This document shows positions 376 through 62,417 of a stretch of DNA of 64,000 nucleotides, one piece after another. The stretch is from the NCBI GenBank assembly GCA_951406725.2, contig OX597828.1:64542001-64606000 (forward strand). The letters run 5' to 3'. Source of the stretch: Octopus vulgaris. Taxonomy: Eukaryota. Both the position numbers and the translations under genes were made by a program. Positions within the stretch are counted from its first letter, which is position 1, and every line of letters starts with the position of its first letter. The notes under the pieces were generated by a model. The model made no database searches, had not been told where the DNA came from, and saw nothing but the letters and a program-made list of their open reading frames with translations.

Positions 376-700
376 TACAGGACACCGCAAATAAACGTAG
401 AACACAGCGAGAAACGAAAACATAAAAACAAACAAGGAAACGGACTTTTTTTAACAACAAAAAAACAGAGTACAAGACAAACAATACAAGGAATATTCCC
501 CTTCATCAGCTGCCTCTGGTTCGACTCAATGTGTGTTTCGAAGGTAAGGGCAGAACACGATCCGGCCGAAGCAATCCTTCCTGCAAAATGAATTAAATAA
601 AATTCTTTTGCAGAGGGGTAAAAAAAGAAAAAAGAACAAAACGTAAAAGCAATACAAATAAAAAACAGTACACATAAAGAATAAAAACAGGACAAGATGC
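372..700 (-). mobile_element. Non-autonomous Penelope-like/retrozyme-type terminal fragment between (TA)n tracts
   Basis: Ribozyme motif followed on the minus strand by a T-rich tail ending in GTCCTGTACTCAT(AT)n; a similar tail end occurs at ~39180 and ~62030. Confidence 0.5.
503..580 (-). ncRNA. Putative non-circularly permuted (pseudoknotted) hammerhead ribozyme, copy 1
   Basis: Minus strand reads GAAGG..TTCGGC..GTGT-T-CTGCC..CCTTC-GAA-ACAC..GTCGAA..GGCAG-CTGATGA. Pairings: GAAGG/CCTTC, TTCGGC/GTCGAA, GTGT/ACAC, CTGCC/GGCAG. Triplet is GUU. Confidence 0.7.
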
Positions 701-5681: not shown

Positions 5682-5774
5682 TGCCCCGGGTGAGGATTGA
5701 ACTCACGACCTTCAGATGGCTCTAAGTTTCCTTTGATTATGAGACTAACGCGCTGCCTACTGCGCTACCGGGGT
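5682..5774 (-). tRNA. trnM-CAT: Elongator tRNA-Met (CAT) gene with a 20-nt intron at 37/38 (intron 5718-5737)
   Basis: Minus strand: ACCCCGGTAGCGCAGTAGGCAGCGCGTTAGTCTCATA-[ATCAAAGGAAACTTAGAGCC]-ATCTGAAGGTCGTGAGTTCAATCCTCACCCGGGGCA, followed a few nt later by TTTTT. The spliced 73 nt closely matches metazoan elongator tRNA-Met. The A1:C72 mismatch may mean it is a pseudogene. Confidence 0.9.
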
Positions 5775-14884: not shown

Positions 14885-16625
14885 TTCGGTTCATTTTGAA
14901 GGATCACAAACCAACTTTTTTACTAACCCATCATTAAGACTTATCTGCCCTTCTAGCTCTGACATCGGTATCCTTAGTAAAAATATACTAGATAAATATA
15001 TTCCTAATTTAATCAAAACATTAAAACTTAGTTTATGGACTAATTCATTTGAAGTAGTTGACTGGTTTAGGTCTATTAGGTGAGTACAAAGTTAGGTGAG
15101 TACAAAGTTTATCCAGTTTGATATTTCCGGCTTGCTCATAACAAAGTTGGTCTCACCCGAGAAGAAATTAATGTTGTGTTGGCAGCTAGAAGATCTATGA
15201 TTAAATTTGATGATAAGTTGTGGGTCCGTAAAGACACACCAGATAGTTTCGATATACCAATGGGAAGTTCTGATTCAGCACAGATAGCTGATTTGGTCTG
15301 TATATATATTTTTTGAAATGGCTGAAGAGTCCCTAACATTTATGGAGGTCTATATCGTGATGATTGTTTACTTTACCTCCAAAATGTTTCCAACCAAAAG
15401 GTACAAAAAGTTAAGAATAGTTTAGTTGATTTTTTCAGTAGAATGGGCTTAAAAATCGTTTTTGATGACGATCTGACGAAGGCCAACTTTTTAGATATTA
15501 CGCTTAATTTACACAGTGACTCTTACTTCCCATATCATAAACCGTTGACCAATCTTAAGTACATTAGCAAATTTACTAATCATCCTGGAGCAATTACTAA
15601 GAACTTAGTTAAAAATATTTCATTTAGATTATCTAAATTATCTGCTAATGTTGATATTTTCAATAATAACGCTGAATTCTATAACTCTGCCTTAATCAAA
15701 GCAGGTTATACAGAAAAAATTTTCTACATTGATTCTGCTCAGTCTAATTGTAAATTCAATAATGTAGATAAGATTTCTAGTCGTAAAAGAATTATTGATA
15801 ACAAACATAACTTACGCAACGATATAAAGCGAATGAAGGCAGATAACCCTTATTTAATCCCCTATTATCGATCTAAAAGTAAATATAACACCTTCAAAAG
15901 TAATTACGCTATGAATACTAGTAAAAATATTTGGTTAATAATTCCTTACGGGAGACAAATTAAATCTAATCTCCCACTGCTGTTTCGTCAAGCTATTGCT
16001 AGGAATTTTCCAAACAATTCTAGATATTACTCTATAATTAATTCACTTAAGGTTAGGATAGGTTTTTCCAAACACAAAATATCTCTTGCAGATTATATCT
16101 TCTCATAATAACAAACTGTTAAATATTAATACATTTACTAATACTAACATTAATTTAGCTAATACCATCCAACCCTCTAGAAATATTAATAACAAGGTTA
16201 TTGTATCTGAAGTCAATTCCAATAGAATTAAATTTATGTCAAGTAACTCTAAGATTAAAAATTCTATATACCAGTGTATAATCAGTACTCGTAATAAAGT
16301 ACGATTTTACATTGGAAGCACATCGTTAGAGTTATCTAAAAGAATTTCTATCCATTACTCAACATTTAGGGATAGAAATAAACGGAATAGTACCGGTCTC
16401 AGCAGACTGATTTGGGATTTAAAAGACCACAATGGACAATTTCATTTAGAATGGTTGATCATCTCAATTTCGATACCATATGACAAAGGCAAGAAACTCT
16501 GTCTTCTCTGCAATTCTGAGCTATTTTTCATTATTTTTTCTAAAAATACTCTAGTAAACACGGTTATAGAGCGAGCATACAGATGTAAGCATTGGCAAAA
16601 ACATACATTTAGTGCATATAAGTAG
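14885..16625 (+). pseudogene. Penelope-type RT plus GIY-YIG endonuclease (frameshifted; possibly Naiad-like clade)
   Basis: Motifs LKDHKP..RLICPSSSDIGILSK, FIQFDI, FDIPMGSSDSAQIADLV, GLYRDD, NFLDITLNL, YISKFTNHP, IYQC...FYIGST, CLLCNSE. Confidence 0.9.
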
Positions 16626-16826
16626 TCTCTATCATTATATATAATTTAAACTTTAATTTCCTTTATATTTAACATTCACTATTAATATCCCTACTCTTTC
16701 TGTTAGCTACTTATGACGTTATATCATATAACGTTTTTTTAAACAATATTAGTAGCGTTCTGTCTATCGCTATACAAATCCATCATTTTTTGCTAAAATG
16801 TCGTATTGACGAGTTTCGTTTTTTTC

Positions 16827-16912
16827 ACTTTCCCGAAGAGAAGATTGCATTGGTTATACCATTTATTCTTTTAAATAGTATCAGTGGAATTTTCGAAACA
16901 TGTGTCGAAAGT
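16827..16912 (+). ncRNA. Type I hammerhead ribozyme of the Penelope element (one core substitution)
   Basis: ACTTTC-CCGAAGA-GAAGATT...AATTTTC-GAAAC-ATGT-GTC-GAAAGT. Stem I is ACTTTC/GAAAGT; stem III is short and palindromic. Confidence 0.7.
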
Positions 16913-23914: not shown

Positions 23915-24029
23915 GTGGCGTCATTCGAAGGCTAAAACAATGCGAACGCATTGTGACCAGCGATGTGTTACAACATCTGATGGTCTGGTCGGTCACGTGA
24001 TCACGTGATATATAAACATATGTATATAT

Positions 24030-24898
24030 GGGTACAGGACGTCACCAACAGTAAGCAACATGAAATACGAAAACAAATGAGTTCAATAGGCAAACAACGA
24101 GAGAAGCATACAACATGCCACGTATCTCGAAGCGATCTTTCAGGCTTAGTTCATAACGCTTGATGTATTCAAAGCCAGGATACCGGACTATTATGAGAAA
24201 GAATGACAAACAAAAAAAGGAAGAACGTGGAGAAAAATAGAACAAGATCAACGCAGTTGTTTATGAAACCAAATTTACTGCAGTGCTCCAAGACAACATA
24301 ATTGAGATGAGAAATTACATCGATTTATACGAAGGCAATTTTAAAGACCGTTAGACAAACCACATTCTTTCAGGCACAATGAGAAAAATAAGGCCTCTAA
24401 GTTGGCCAGCTATGTATGGCATCTGAAAACCAAATACAATCAAGTGTAGAATTGTTGAGAAATCTGCGCCGTGTATAAATGGCTAAAAAGATGCAAATTA
24501 TGCTTTGCTGAAAAGATCACACATTCATTTTATGTCCAAGAATTTCCCCACACTATTTAATTCCAAATCCGAAATGTTTAGCAAATGTAAGTGTCCATGG
24601 ACAGATTTCTTTTGTCGAACTGGAGGCCACCACCCTTTCTGGATTGAGGAGCTTTCTTAATGACTTTGGCCTCCTTTCTCAGCTACATTAATTATATATT
24701 TTTTTTATTTTCTTACTTTTTTCTTTTCCTGTCGTTCTATTTTTTTTTCTTCGCGGTTTTTTCTTTTCGTTTTTTTTTTTCTCTCTCAACTGAACTTGAA
24801 AGGTTGCTTGCAGATAGATGGCATGTTATATAAATTTGCCGTTTTAATATATCTTGAAGCTTGAAACTATTATTAGATCTTTGTAATTGTGTATATTA

Positions 24899-31339: not shown

Positions 31340-31411
<72 letters not shown>

Positions 31412-31503
31412 GTCCCTATTTCGTATACATTCGATCCTTCTTCCAAGAAATCTAATGCTCGTAGCTTAGTTTTTCTAATGCTCGTAGCTTAGTTTTTCCT
31501 GGA

Positions 31504-31576
31504 GGCTGGCCGGATCGGAGCGATCTCAAGATTAATCAGCCGAAATTGCTACGATGATCCGGTTCTTGACTGAAGA
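31504..31576 (+). ncRNA. Putative permuted hammerhead ribozyme, copy 2
   Basis: GGCTGG/TCAGCC (II), CCGGATC/GATCCGG (extra helix), AGCGAT/ATTGCT (III), AUC triplet with predicted cut after 31525, TCAAGA/TCTTGA (I), then CTGAAGA at 31570-31576. Confidence 0.75.
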
Positions 31577-32079
31577 TTGAGGGCTTTTTTGTATCGTCTT
31601 CTAAGTGTTTTGCGTTCTTGTCTCAGTTTGTATTTTTCTAAATATAATAATAATTATATATGTATATATATATATATTGATAATGAAGCAGGGGAAGTCT
31701 TATCAGTAAGGCTGATTATGATAGTCTGCTAGTGGGAGACCCTCTTAATTATCAGCCAAAATCTTGATTTTTTTATGACTATACGAACTAGAATGTCTGT
31801 CTACTCTCTCAGCCCTACCCCTAACAGATACTGCCCTCTGTTCTCTCAGCCTTAGGTATACAAGGGATTTAATAAACTAGTTTATAAATTAAAACTGACC
31901 CCATAAAGGCAAAAAATCAGTGGCAGGCAGAGCCTTCTTGATAATTTTAGTAATTTCTATGCTGAAGTAAAGACATGTTCTTTGTCTATCTCCTTAACAT
32001 TTTGGAGATTTTAAGTATAATTATACTAATGTTCTATACTATCTGTTCTAATTTAATTAGAATTAAATTCTATGTTTTT

Positions 32080-38873: not shown

Positions 38874-38931
<58 letters not shown>

Positions 38932-38945
38932 CACACATACACATA

Positions 38946-39190
38946 ATATATGAGTACAGGACGTCACCAACAGTAAACAACATGAAATACGAAAACAAAT
39001 AGTTCAATGCGCAAACAACGAGAGAAACAAATGGAAAACAAGACAGGTAACACAAAGCCGACAATTGATGAAGGGTCGCTCTTTATGTTACTTGTCCTGT
39101 TTTCCATTTGTTTCTCTCGTTGTTTGCGCATTGAACTATTTGTTTTCGTATTTCATGTTGTTTACTGTCGGTGACGTCCTGTACCCATAT
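38946..39190. repeat. ~110-bp-arm inverted repeat of the permuted-hammerhead element tail
   Basis: The right part GCCGACAATTGATGAAGGGTCG...GTCCTGTACCCATAT matches 61915-62040; the left arm is its reverse complement. Confidence 0.85.
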
Positions 39191-39226
39191 ATGCATAAGT
39201 ATATTATGTGTGTGTGTGTATATATA

Positions 39227-46891: not shown

Positions 46892-47462
46892 ATATATGTA
46901 CACTGTTGCTCACCTTGTAAGTATGTATCTAAATTCTGTACGATTCTTTTACTCTTTCTTTTAGCCCCCCTCATACTTTCTTCTTTCTTTCCTCTTTTCT
47001 TTTCCTCGCTCCCCCCCTCTCACATTTCTTGGTCTTCTCTTTAATCTCCCTACTTTCCCTCGTTTATCTCCCATGTACCTTTCTTTATATCCCTTTGATT
47101 TTCTCTCTTTCTTGTTCTTCCCCTGATTCTTCAAACCCTCTGCCTCCTACCTCTCTCCTTTCCTTCCACGTGACCAGTTTTCGGCTGAGCATGATCTTTC
47201 TTTTTTGGCTCGACTGCCGGTCGTGAAGTATCTCTTATATTCCTGTCTCATGGCTTTCATCTCTTACGTTCATCTCCTATGTTCCTGCCTCAAGGCCTTC
47301 ACTCCACACACGCCAGCTCAACTTTATTCGTCTTCACTGGTCGAAAAGCCTGTTGTTATTTTCTTGCTTGTATTTGAAATTGTTCCGTCTATTTGTCTTT
47401 GTTATCGTACCCATTCGCTTGCTTTATCGCCCCAAATTTAATGCTCTTATCTTAGATTTTGG

Positions 47463-47536
47463 GGCCAGCCAGATTTGAACAGTCTCGAGTGTAACCGGCC
47501 GAAACTGTAAGGATGATCTGGAAACTTGACTGATGA
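47463..47536 (+). ncRNA. Putative permuted hammerhead ribozyme, copy 3 (GUC triplet)
   Basis: GGCC/GGCC (II), CCAGATT/GATCTGG (extra), ACAGT/ACTGT (III), GUC with predicted cut after 47484, TCGAGT/ACTTGA (I), then CTGATGA at 47530-47536. Confidence 0.75.
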
Positions 47537-48079
47537 GAGAGGGCTGCGAATAACCCATCTTTGTTTTTCCTTGTCCTTTTTGTTGTTTTTCTTGTCTGTC
47601 TTTGTATCATCTATCTGTCCGGATGTTTTATTGTCGTCTGTTGCGTACTTGTTCCATTTTTGTATGCGTGTATGTATGTATGTATGTATGTATGTATGTA
47701 TGTATGTATGTATGTATGTATGTACGTATGTATGTGTGTGTGTATATATGTATATATATATGTTTATGTGTGTGTGTGTATGTATTCATATATGTATATA
47801 TGTACTTTAACTTATGTATGTTAGCAAATAATGTAAAAATTGCCAAGGAAACCGAAAAAGGGAGTTTTATGAATGACGTCCTTGGATATTTGTTTTGCAT
47901 CTAGGTACAAAAGAATCCCTTGTTACTTTCGCCACTCGAAAGGGAGTGAACCAGTGATTAATTCATTAGAAACTTGTAACCAACGATGCACATTTTCACT
48001 GATTGTCACCTGAAACATTGCTTAAACAATTGGTTTCCTCTCTCAGTAAGAAAAGTTCCTCTTATTACTATTATTATTT

Positions 48080-58246: not shown

Positions 58247-59349
58247 TGCAAGCGCAGGTTGGGGGTCAACAAAGGACGAGGACTAAGTTACGATAGCACG
58301 GAACGTTACTATCAACACAATGAATTCATTTCGTTATTAGTGTACATCATTAGTGTTATATTTCAACCAATCAGCATGAGTTAATTACCCATTTGCTCAT
58401 TGGTCACGTGGCTGCCTCCAATTAACAATCTGCTTATTTATTTTTTCAATTAATGAACTGATATTTCAAAATAATAATAATAATAATAATAATAATTAAT
58501 AATAATAATCAATACAGACAAAATCAAGTCAACAGTCTTCACTCTGAACCCTAAACTCTTAACTACGACCCCTAAACGTAACCACAACCATAAGTCTAAC
58601 CCCTAACTCTCATTTAATTCATAAAAGATAAAGATGAAAAAAAAAACAGTGGTGGGGTGGTGGGGGTGTTGCAAGATTAGGGTCCAAAGGGAAAGAGTTG
58701 TGGTTTCTGTTGCACAAAAGATATGCGTTGGGGTGGGGTCTCGACAAAAAGGTTTTGGTGGTTGCGGTTCTGTATGTGAATGTGTGTGTGTAGGGCCAAG
58801 GGGTTGTTGTTTGGTGGTGGCGAAGGAAGTATCGTTATAGTCGTGTCTGTAATATTGGCTTGACATGTGTCCTTGTGGTTGCAGCGTAGTGGTATAGTTA
58901 AGAAATTTCTTCACAGTCATGGAATCATGGGTTCGATTCTGCTTCATGGAATCTTGGTCAGCTGCCTTTTAGTATCACATCGTTTCGAGTCAACACTTGA
59001 AGGTGAAAACGAGTTGCCAGAAATTGAGGAAATAAATTTCTCCTTTTCTAAAAGAAAAAAAAATACAGAAGCACAAAATGCTTCCAAAATGAAGAATTAC
59101 GTTAGAATAGTATCCTAAAGGAATATTTGCTTACATATATACATCACGGAATTTTGTCAATGAACAGGTCGCGGTCTCAAAGCGACAAAAATATTTTGGC
59201 AAATTAAATTTAAATGTTGAAGTGAATCTAACGGTTTTTGTGTGTTTCTTAAATGGCTTATAAACACCTTCCACGCTGCAATTGTTTTCGTTCCAACACG
59301 ATCTCAGATCAGGTCACTTGCTATGCAAGTACATCTCCGCAATATATAT

Positions 59350-59935
59350 ATATATACACAACCCATGTCACCAGAATATCTTCAACATTGCCAAAGCAAA
59401 CCTACCAATCATTGCCCAAAGTAATGAATTAAAAGACATAATCAAGGATCGAGCTATGGTGCTTAGTAAAAGACAGCCTAAAAACTTGAAAACATTACTA
59501 ACAAAGGCAAAATTTGACCTCAGCAACAAAGACCAAACATTCACGGTATCTAAATGCAATGATAGCCGATGTGGCACATGCCAATTCATACATACCGGTC
59601 AATATATAAACACAAAAACCGGGAAAATATTCACAAACGCGAATATGAACTGCAAAAGCAGAAATTTAATTTACTGCATCAAATGCCCAAATTGTGAAGA
59701 AATATATGTAGGTCAGACGGGAAACGCACTATTAGAACGCTCACGTGTACACCGGCAACAGATTAGAGACCCAGAGGTCCGTCAGATACCTTTGAGTAAC
59801 CACCTAGCAACATGTGGTCGGAAAATATATATAATATTTCCATTCTACAAATTACACAGCCCAAGTGAAATCGAGAGGAAAATCAGAGAAAAGAATTTTA
59901 TTGATAAATTCGAACCCAAGCTAAATAAGCAATAA
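59350..59935 (+). pseudogene. Penelope-like (Neptune-type) Zn-finger plus GIY-YIG endonuclease, 5'-truncated, open frame
   Basis: RQPKNLKTLL, CNDSRCGTC, NLIYCIKCPNCEEIYVGQTG, RSRVHRQQIRD, REKNFI..PKLN*. Confidence 0.85.
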
Positions 59936-60430
59936 TAATAATACTTAGAGGTATTACTTCCACTGCTACGACCATGACCACTAACAACAACAACAATACT
60001 AAAGGTGATCAAGACGAAGATAGCAGGAACATTATCTTATTTAGGGTTAAAAGTTCTATTGCCACCACCATCACCACTAGCAACAATAATTAAGGTGCTG
60101 ACAATGATGATGATGACAATTGAAATATAAAAATATAAAAATCTCTGACAAAGGATATTTACAACATTTCTAAAAATAACCCAACAATTGCTGCTTCGGC
60201 CAGGGTCAAGATACAGGACTCTTGACCTGTCCAACAAAGCGTGATGCCTAAACCAATCAGCTCAACCAACCAATCAGCTTAAGTAATTGAGTGATACTAC
60301 ACACTGATTGGTCAGAATACAGTTTGCAAAACCTAGCACTCTGGAGCCTACCCAGCTGTATTTATAGCACAGAATCACTCATCTTGCTACAGTCAAAAAT
60401 TGTGAAGCATGACTGTCAACACTACTACAT

Positions 60431-60473
60431 GAACCCGAAGATTGCAGAATTCAATGCATGAAAGTACTAGTTC
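60431..60473 (+). ncRNA. Minimal type I hammerhead in the 3' region of that Penelope element
   Basis: GAAC-CCGAAGA-TTGCA..TGCAT-GAAAG-TA-CTA-GTTC; palindromic AGTACT stem III. Confidence 0.65.
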
Positions 60474-60655
60474 AATCAGAATGAATATTTAACATTCTAC
60501 TATTTCATTTTATTTTATTCAATTATAATATATTATCTTATAATATATCATTATAAGATTGTAAATAAAACGTGAAAATCAGACAAGGTTGGAATTCTTT
60601 TTATTAATATATTCTTCTATACACAATCACACACACCCATATATATATATATATA

Positions 60656-61466: not shown

Positions 61467-61595
61467 TATATATATATATATAAATTCAGTGTGTTGCGTT
61501 CCATTACTTGAGAAATGTAAAAATGTATAAACAAACGACGTACCTTATCGTGAATGTAAAAACGGATGTGAGACAAACAGAAAGTCCATAATTCT

Positions 61596-61676
61596 TCATC
61601 AGTCATCGACCAACGGTACTCTTCAGTTTCGCACCTTTAACGATAAAACCGATTGCTTCTCAACTGACTGGACGTC
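61596..61676 (-). ncRNA. Putative permuted hammerhead, copy 4 (degenerate)
   Basis: Minus strand: TCGGT-T-TTATCG..GGTGC-GAA-ACTGA..CGATGA-CTGATGA. Stems I and III are clear; II and the extra helix are eroded. Confidence 0.55.
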
Positions 61677-61852
61677 TTCTATCTCTCTCTTCTAGAAAAT
61701 ATTTCTCCCAGCGTTCGCTACTTTCCCCTCGTTCTGATCAAACGACCCTCCATGTTTGTTTTCGTTCGGTTTCATTGTATGTCTCCACTGTTCTGTTTTT
61801 GTTCCCAATTTTTACCGTCCGTAAATCCCAAATTATATTTTGGTATTTATGG

Positions 61853-61929
61853 GAGCAACTGTCTTCGAAGACTCATACTGTCATTGAATGCTCGAAATGA
61901 GGAGTAGATAGGCAGCCGACAACTGATGA
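61853..61929 (+). ncRNA. Putative permuted hammerhead, copy 5
   Basis: GAGCA/TGCTC (II), CTGTCT/AGATAG (extra), CTCAT/ATGAG (III), AUA triplet, (C)TGTC/GACA(A) (I), then CTGATGA at 61923-61929. Confidence 0.72.
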
Positions 61930-62417
61930 AGGGTCGTTCTTTGTGTTGCTTGTCCTGTTTTCCATTTGTTTCTCTCGTTGCTTGCGTATTTAACTCCTTT
62001 GTTTTCGTACTTCATGTTGTTTACGTCCTGTACCCATATATGCAAATATATACACTCACACACTCACACACACACACAGACACACACACACACACACTGA
62101 TGTATATCCCGCCTCTGCCTTTTTTTTTTTTTTTTCGATAAGCAAAGTCAGCCATTTCTTTCAAACTACTCCTACTACAGTTTCTCGCCACAGATCTCTT
62201 GTTATCTTCCTCTAAATGTAACTCCATCTTCCATTTCAGTAACAACTTGAAGTTGTTGGACGGCTTTGCAAAGTAATGGACGGCTTTGCAAAAAGAAAAA
62301 TGCGATCTAAAGACGTTCATTAATCATGTGACGCCATTACATAGACATAAGTTTATCGAGAGGATTTTATCTGGCCATTAGCAGACATCCTCTCATTCCC
62401 CCATCACCCTTGCTCGC

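Follow-up and report, generated by a model that had tools for sequence, protein, structure and literature searches.

A candidate hammerhead ribozyme with its core opened between A9 and G10.1 in Penelope-like units of Octopus vulgaris and at the 3' ends of Naiad retroelements

In the hammerhead ribozyme, G12 and G8 catalyze the attack of the 2'-OH at H17, which leaves 2',3'-cyclic phosphate and 5'-OH ends. Eckert 2023 (PMC10085705) defined the blocks S, G, and C of the hammerhead and assumed that CUGANGA and its adjacent strands could not be interrupted. The S-G-C order of the blocks was published in that work as the non-circular type SGC, which cleaves; in ribozymes of types SGC and CSG, cleavage occurs at the predicted site, and the I-II helix is required. 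Type SGC is known from metatranscriptomes and not from the genomes of known organisms (PMC10085705), and type CSG is represented by two metagenome sequences. The hammerheads of Penelope-like elements (PLEs) and retrozymes are of the circularly permuted type I (CGS); their stem III is often minimal and palindromic, and such forms act as dimers (PMC4209133). Among PLEs, Naiads were described by Craig et al. 2021 (PMC8557442) as lacking canonical hammerheads; strings flagged there as 'HHR_core' and 'HHR_half_core' did not fit hammerhead descriptors, and the available text proposes no fold for them.

The window (i.e., the whole 64-kb stretch of O. vulgaris DNA that was analyzed) contains five copies of a motif with the strand order IIa-Xa-[IIIb-NUH-Ia]-[IIb-GAA-IIIa]-Xb-[Ib-CUGANGA]. 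An earlier note, made from the letters alone, had placed them at 503-580 (-), 31504-31576 (+), 47463-47536 (+), 61596-61676 (-), and 61853-61929 (+), and all five were confirmed: the pattern CGAAA-N24..27-CTGAWGA has exactly five matches in the window, each at a reported copy, compared with 0.06 on average and at most 2 in 100 dinucleotide shuffles of the window. A strict four-block descriptor recovers three of the five copies (A at 47463, B at 31504, and C at 503; null mean of 0.04). Each of the five copies comes from a different repeat family (A to E). The helix sequences proposed for them are correct, and the strand order is upheld by both anatomy and covariation; the claim that all five copies show one full order stands for A, B, C, and E, whereas in copy D a 5' truncation at the inverted junction with element E has removed IIa and Xa. 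The features are listed below.

46895..47660, + strand: near-complete family A unit (tail, GTAAGT at 46917, pyrimidine-rich body, motif, U-rich end, and then microsatellite)
47463..47536, + strand: core-opened hammerhead motif of family A, from pattern match, descriptor, and helix pairing
47463..47468, + strand: IIa, the putative stem II 5' strand from G10.1, pairing with 47495-47500
47469..47475, + strand: Xa, pairing with Xb at 47515-47521, named by analogy to helix 'I' of type SGC
47479..47490, + strand: block S (IIIb, 47479-47483; GUC with C17 at 47484; Ia, 47485-47490)
47495..47508, + strand: block G (IIb, 47495-47500; GAA, 47501-47503; IIIa, 47504-47508)
47515..47536, + strand: Xb (47515-47521), Ib (47524-47529), and CUGAUGA (47530-47536)
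47542..47546, + strand: GGCTG, which could pair with IIb as a 3' alternative (5-nt spacer) but lacks conservation among families
31504..31576, + strand: family B motif with AUC, predicted cut after 31525; element at about 31409-31677, 5'-truncated
503..580, - strand: family C motif with GUU, predicted cut after 554; element at about 310-696
61853..61929, + strand: family E motif with AUA, predicted cut after 61877; element at 61675-62044
61596..61666, - strand: family D motif, 5'-truncated; element at 61467-61666

Copy A carries the canonical GUC triplet that had been read in it, with C17 at 47484 and the predicted cut site on the 3' side of this nucleotide. Its CUGAUGA terminates at A9 with no stem II strand attached. 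The IIa/IIb pairing of copy A consists of four Watson-Crick pairs, one A.C mismatch, and a G-C pair, and the L180 copy of the same family has six Watson-Crick pairs. Helix X links the distal ends of stems I and II; only X and stem III are nested, and stems II and I each cross them. In the family B copy, stems II, III, and I are 6 bp each and X is about 9 bp. The stem I pairing proposed for copy E is present as a helix but has a C.A mismatch at its first pair, in contrast to the six Watson-Crick pairs of the family E majority. IIa and Xa, missing from copy D, are present in other family D copies (GCACC/GGTGC in L243). In-register matches of the motif are 69-79 nt long, and the spacings among 20 representatives are 19-26 nt from G10.1 to U16.1, 13-16 nt from the start of Ia to GAAA, and 24-27 nt from A15.1 to C3. 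Further family E fragments are located at 38927-39223 and 24017-24108 and include an inverted pair broken within the ribozyme. The family D (-) and family E (+) elements of 61467-62044 abut back to back at about 61670; this block has a 95% duplicate near the start of the same contig (L082), which does not count as an independent event.

The core strands CUGANGA, GAAA, and NUH, with the U16.1-A15.1 pair, are present in all 20 representatives, in which the triplets are GUC, GUU, GUA, AUC, and AUA. Among these 20 natural copies, which cover about 17 subfamilies and were chosen for good structural fit so that the counts lean towards the structure, 99 of 100 cells are paired in stem II formed with the 5' strand (pairs 1-5, registers fixed at the core), 96 of 100 in stem III (pairs 1-5), and 98 of 100 in stem I. 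Each helix position shows two to five pair types, and only G10.1-C11.1 and U16.1-A15.1 are invariant. In a MAFFT alignment (94 cells), in which row N is out of register at stem II, the 5' stem II is 98.9% paired with 37 double changes and a covariation of 0.83; none of 500 shuffles is as good, a count that is not a probability because the representatives are related and were selected for fit, and slid controls give 20-50%. Stems I and III were counted by script and helix X was only listed, since MAFFT left them out of register across families; X comprises 4-10 bp with a different complementary sequence in each family. Across seven families, matched strands pair better than strands permuted between families, with p = 1/5040 for stem II, 2/5040 for stem III, and 12/5040 for stem I. 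Family majorities chosen solely by the GAAA..CUGANGA anchor again yield the 5' stem II, so that biased choice of copies is no longer a concern for this stem. The covariation of the helices, as originally claimed, is thereby borne out for stems II, III, and I, and the motif possesses the structural hallmarks of the hammerhead class, i.e., the core strands, three covarying helices abutting the core, and a distal contact between stems I and II, here via X. Pseudoknot-free folding, which is unable to represent the proposed fold, returns other minimum-energy structures, so that misfolding is possible.

Type SGC (HRIMA-1 and variants) shares with the octopus motif the S-G-C order, a short stem I-II linker, the full CUGANGA/GAAA/NUH core, and an extra helix between the distal ends of stems I and II. 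In type SGC, the stem II and X strands directly follow CUGANGA, whereas both are at the 5' end of the octopus motif, in which X encloses stem III through two links. Type CSG has the same cyclic order as the octopus motif but differs in that block C is whole and the opening lies between IIIa and Xa. The motif resembles type SGC in build but fails to show the unbroken block C of that type (a stem II strand 0-2 nt 3' of CUGANGA) and is therefore not filed as SGC. The novelty of the wiring, which the earlier note had left to be checked, is partial: the S-G-C order is known, and the opening of the chain between A9 and G10.1, a link assumed to be unbreakable in the available text of Eckert 2023, is new, as is the host. 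In our literature search, with subscription papers and figures outside its range, no description emerged of this layout, of permuted hammerheads in Naiads, or of a natural or tested hammerhead without the A9-G10.1 link, and 'type-SGC' was met in the original paper only. The sole precedent found at A9-G10.1, in the accessible parts of the sources, is one inserted nucleotide (PMC4209133, PMC3705267). The order also separates the motif from Rfam hammerhead types I-III, which are cyclic (C-G-S), and no model matched it; a search of the window against Rfam gave no hammerhead at the gathering threshold, and none was matched around 47463 at E<=10, in agreement with the expectation that standard models would miss it.

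The window also contains hammerheads of ordinary wiring. A decayed PLE with RT and C-terminal GIY-YIG frames and no Pfam match, which we take to be Hydra-like by its motifs, is located at 15326-16912 (+), and a canonical type I hammerhead with the core CCGAAGA lies 3' of it at 16827-16912 (+). A GIY-YIG frame (PF01541) at 59264-60474 (+), Neptune-like and with a CxxC linker upstream, is followed at 60430-60474 (+) by a minimal type I hammerhead with a palindromic stem III and CCGAAGA. CCGAAGA replaces CUGANGA in otherwise canonical hammerheads of three unrelated PLE families (16833 and 60435 in the window; L014 and L033) and is possibly a tolerated U4C variant rather than decay. A tRNA match of 47 bits with a 21-nt insertion in the anticodon loop (5682-5774, -) and a fragment of a Tc1/mariner transposase (PF01498; 32762-33343, +) are also present.

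The retroelement context proposed earlier is borne out, in the form of TA-targeting, partly tandem Penelope-like units. In families A to E, the motif is separated by 100-150 nt from the 3' end of the element, which is constant and borders (TA)n or related microsatellites, and the elements show variable 5' truncation, short tails (30-40 nt), and inverted partners. All five families have the (TA)n target bias, the partial tandem or inverted structure, and the tail, features that are shared with Hydra and Neptune PLEs and are thus not diagnostic of Naiads. Full units are about 750-900 nt; at four distinct tandem loci, motifs of the same family are 868-903 nt apart, with units of about 890 nt. Units start with a donor-like GTAAGT or GTGAGT site, and in families A, B, and C a putative acceptor-like AG is immediately 5' of the motif. 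In family A, GTAAGT is at 46917 and an acceptor-like YAG at 47451-47455 is just upstream of the ribozyme; in family C, the AG of the acceptor-like site at 581-588 (-) is two bases before G10.1. An intron end likewise adjoins the ribozyme in Drosophila Penelope (PMC4209133).

The longest stop-free frame across the family B tandem unit has 194 codons, PLE protein queries gave no match inside a unit of families A to E, and no GIY-YIG, CxC, or RT ORF for these families was found in the units or flanks of 110 loci, where tblastn matched other PLE families only. One candidate parent, a Hydra-type endonuclease joined to a family E tail at L096, was rejected as a chimera: the 19 other fetched copies of this endonuclease end otherwise, running into a different 3' UTR or unrelated DNA. 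Endonuclease fragments near L012, L014, L029, L033, L050, L076, and L089 belong to other PLE families and were likewise rejected as parents. Families A to E are short non-autonomous Penelope-like units. In the available descriptions, other PLEs also have their type I or minimal hammerhead near the 3' end of the unit (PMC4209133, 10.64898/2026.07.22.740005), and PLE pseudo-LTR hammerheads and non-LTR retrozymes also form partial tandems and short non-autonomous units. The units are tandem and non-coding, as in the definition of non-LTR retrozymes (10.64898/2026.07.22.740005), but do not carry its type I ribozyme; the octopus motif further differs from the PLE type I hammerheads in being pseudoknotted and in having a full stem III.

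Naiads share the host clade, (TA)n targets, and the 3' UTR position with these units, and Naiad_Ovul, which was flagged as HHR_half_core, carries the motif. Inspection by eye of the terminal 400-600 nt covered 53 of the 54 published Naiad consensus sequences (PMC8557442 File_S5), and the wiring of the window was found at the 3' end of 10 of the 53, in seven families and five phyla: Bfor, 3_Chem, Amil, Aacu, Anas, 2_Movir, Plae, EuTe, Obim, and Ovul. Their hosts are a ctenophore, cnidarians, an acanthocephalan, a crustacean, and octopuses. Stem I of Bfor comprises just 2 bp, and there are two mismatches in Aacu. Thus, by this inspection, the earlier reading of a cephalopod retroelement ribozyme stands for the retroelement but not for restriction to cephalopods, since Naiads of other phyla carry the wiring. 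Six nematode Naiads (three Nbra, Hcon, Hpol, and Asuum) have an intact CSG layout by eye, a type represented so far by two metagenome sequences. Esco has X, III, and I without a clear stem II, and the spider Naiad Ptep is SGC-like without a resolved stem II; in Ptep, Smim, and some Dst ends, CUGANGA is straddled by an X-like helix, which hints at plain SGC layouts. Other conserved structured motifs, presumably twister-like, are present in the 3' UTRs of 14 bivalve and hemichordate Naiads, and in 21 of the 53 ends a complete motif is missing from the 400-600 nt inspected.

Within the octopus genome, a 20-mer from the Octopus Naiad consensus has 301 exact matches, compared with 0 for the control. 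L171 matches the ORF end and 3' UTR of Naiad_Obim by eye, and the motif lies at its end; its reading as a long decayed Naiad was rejected, because a side-by-side comparison shows the last ~320 nt of the ORF and the 3' UTR only. A genome search with the RT tail of L171 gave 121 matches, and a motif remnant is downstream in five of the eight RT-tail loci fetched (1.1-2.2 kb each). On contigs 1-5, at least 9 of 47 RT-tail matches are followed on the same strand by the exact 20-mer at a distance of 0.8-4.4 kb, a figure that includes two loci picked via the motif and that comes from checking 13 hand-picked positions of the 100 listed. In family N, the RT C-terminus, the 3' UTR, and the motif lie on the same strand, and the recovered part is the ORF end, without N-terminal domains; the 67-aa RT tail had no meaningful match in Pfam or PDB. 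The RT-linked loci L255 and L259 share GGCAGCTGA and a G-rich/AATAT context with family C of the window, a hint that family C may descend from a Naiad, and the short elements of the window families are probably derived from Naiads.

The motif is abundant in the 2.8-Gb genome. CGAAA-N24-CTGAWG has 11,972 matches, as against 1,284 for the reversed control, and CGAAA-N25-CTGAT has 7,421, as against 2,675; the excess over control of ~15,400 at just these two spacings indicates at least about 15,000 core-intact copies. Searches with the five window copies returned 3,076, 3,469, 3,234, 5,843, and 516 candidates, respectively. The full descriptor is satisfied by 9 of 36 copies of family A, 28 of 32 of B, 16 of 27 of C, and 10 of 33 of E, and many old copies are decayed. 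Twenty random 10-kb stretches, a sample too small for an estimate of copy number, contained one intact motif, three decayed or edge-cut matches, and one weak descriptor match that looks like chance.

The motif is likely a core-opened S-G-C hammerhead that cleaves itself after NUH and so processes the RNA of Naiads and probably of Naiad-derived elements. Judged by its sequence, it has a good probability of being catalytic, and it is likely the self-cleaving RNA whose absence from Naiads had been reported. In the proposed fold, stem III would stack under stem II, as in any hammerhead, and the short Ia-IIb linker together with helix X would clamp the distal ends of stems I and II in place of a loop-loop contact. 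A9 would be placed on G10.1-C11.1 through a sheared pair with G12, with no covalent link. CUGANGA is transcribed last, so that no cut could take place before the whole motif is made. A cut in each unit of a tandem transcript would then release RNAs of unit length (about 890 nt) that carry 5'-OH and 2',3'-cyclic phosphate ends and may be ligated or reverse transcribed by the RT/endonuclease of Naiads to give the partial tandems. Release of units for ligation or reverse transcription has been proposed as a model for PLEs (PMC4209133), and a similar model of unit-length RNA processing exists for retrozymes (10.64898/2026.07.22.740005).

That the 5' strand of stem II is detached from CUGANGA, as the earlier note proposed, is highly probable, and it is borne out by covariation on the 5' side and none on the 3' side. 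The competing reading is an ordinary type SGC in which the working stem II strand lies 3' of CUGANGA past a 1-5-nt insertion, with the 5' strand as a competitor or switch. It draws on the three to five pairs possible 3' of A9 in window copies A, B, C, and E and in families F, G, and H: families C, E, F, G, and H have a G-rich strand 1-2 nt after A9 that could form three to four pairs with IIb, and families A and B have GGCU 5 nt after A9. PLE hammerheads typically have one additional nucleotide between A9 and G10.1 (PMC4209133), and in window copy A the two stem II partners are of near-equal energy; GGCTG at 47542-47546, an alternative about as stable as the 5' strand, had been overlooked, and the advantage of the 5' strand here is just 0.6 kcal/mol. 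Nevertheless, the 3' alternative at spacer 1 has only 61% of cells paired and a covariation of 0.20, and 164 of 500 shuffles do as well; the strand is absent or limited to two pairs or fewer in A2, B2, B3, B5, and D. In family A, L018 and L023 (subfamily A2) have changed GGCC(A/G)G/CCGGCC to GGGCA/TGCCC on both sides, while the 3' alternative is unchanged. The 5' strand is the more stable partner of IIb in all 12 folded copies, and helix X directly follows it, as X follows IIa in types SGC and CSG. An ordinary SGC ribozyme is therefore improbable, and the covariation of the 5' stem II, its lack in the 3' alternative, and the position of X together describe the cyclic order of SGC and CSG opened between A9 and G10.1. 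That a single repeat family amplified a chance arrangement has next to no probability: copies within a family are not independent, but the helices are kept in at least seven families here and in seven Naiad families from five phyla, and the compensatory changes between families refute it.

For the core-opened hammerhead, two further readings concern its activity. The fold might be a binding or priming site for the RT/endonuclease, derived from a hammerhead, that cleaves with the help of protein or never, which is unlikely, although less so than the ordinary SGC. PLE hammerheads alone are often weak cleavers (PMC4209133), insertion in vitro does not require the hammerhead of Poseidon PAc (PMC11167929), and the core could be weakened by the A9-G10.1 break; moreover, the available part of the Poseidon study reports no RNA-seq ends at the PAc cut site (PMC11167929). 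Such a role sits poorly with catalytic nucleotides that are all invariant while the helices turn over, and with the intact CSG hammerhead at the same place in nematode Naiads. The motif at this place in other Naiads, if twister-like as we presume, also suggests selection for self-cleavage. The active form could alternatively be a dimer of two tandem copies or of two RNAs, given that the elements occur as partial tandems, that minimal PLE hammerheads function as dimers (PMC4209133), and that the two short X-III links constrain the monomer fold; it is very unlikely, as stem III is 5-7 bp and not palindromic, and the constant length and spacings of the motif suit an intramolecular fold.

Types SGC and CSG and the octopus layout represent one cyclic order with different openings, so that Naiads appear to vary in the point at which the rest of the element is inserted. 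On the sequence evidence, it is fairly likely that this is a seventh natural hammerhead layout, active, and the usual ribozyme of many Naiads in ctenophores, cnidarians, syndermatans, crustaceans, and cephalopods, with CSG as that of nematodes. The list of six hammerhead permutations regarded as complete in the available text rests on the assumption that CUGANGA and its stem II strand are inseparable, which would be broken here. If true, non-circularly permuted hammerheads would be a common feature of animal genomes (that of the octopus has >15,000 core-intact copies) and, known so far from anonymous metatranscriptome contigs, would gain a place in animal chromosomes, where their copy number is very high. 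A triply pseudoknotted ribozyme of 70-80 nt with its catalytic strand last would also offer a new scaffold for structural work and RNA engineering. The published view, as far as its text is available, that Naiads thrive without hammerheads has been used to argue that hammerheads may be mere parasites of PLEs; this view would be overturned, and the role of PLE ribozymes would become directly testable in a large clade. Every PLE clade may then rely on self-cleaving RNA.
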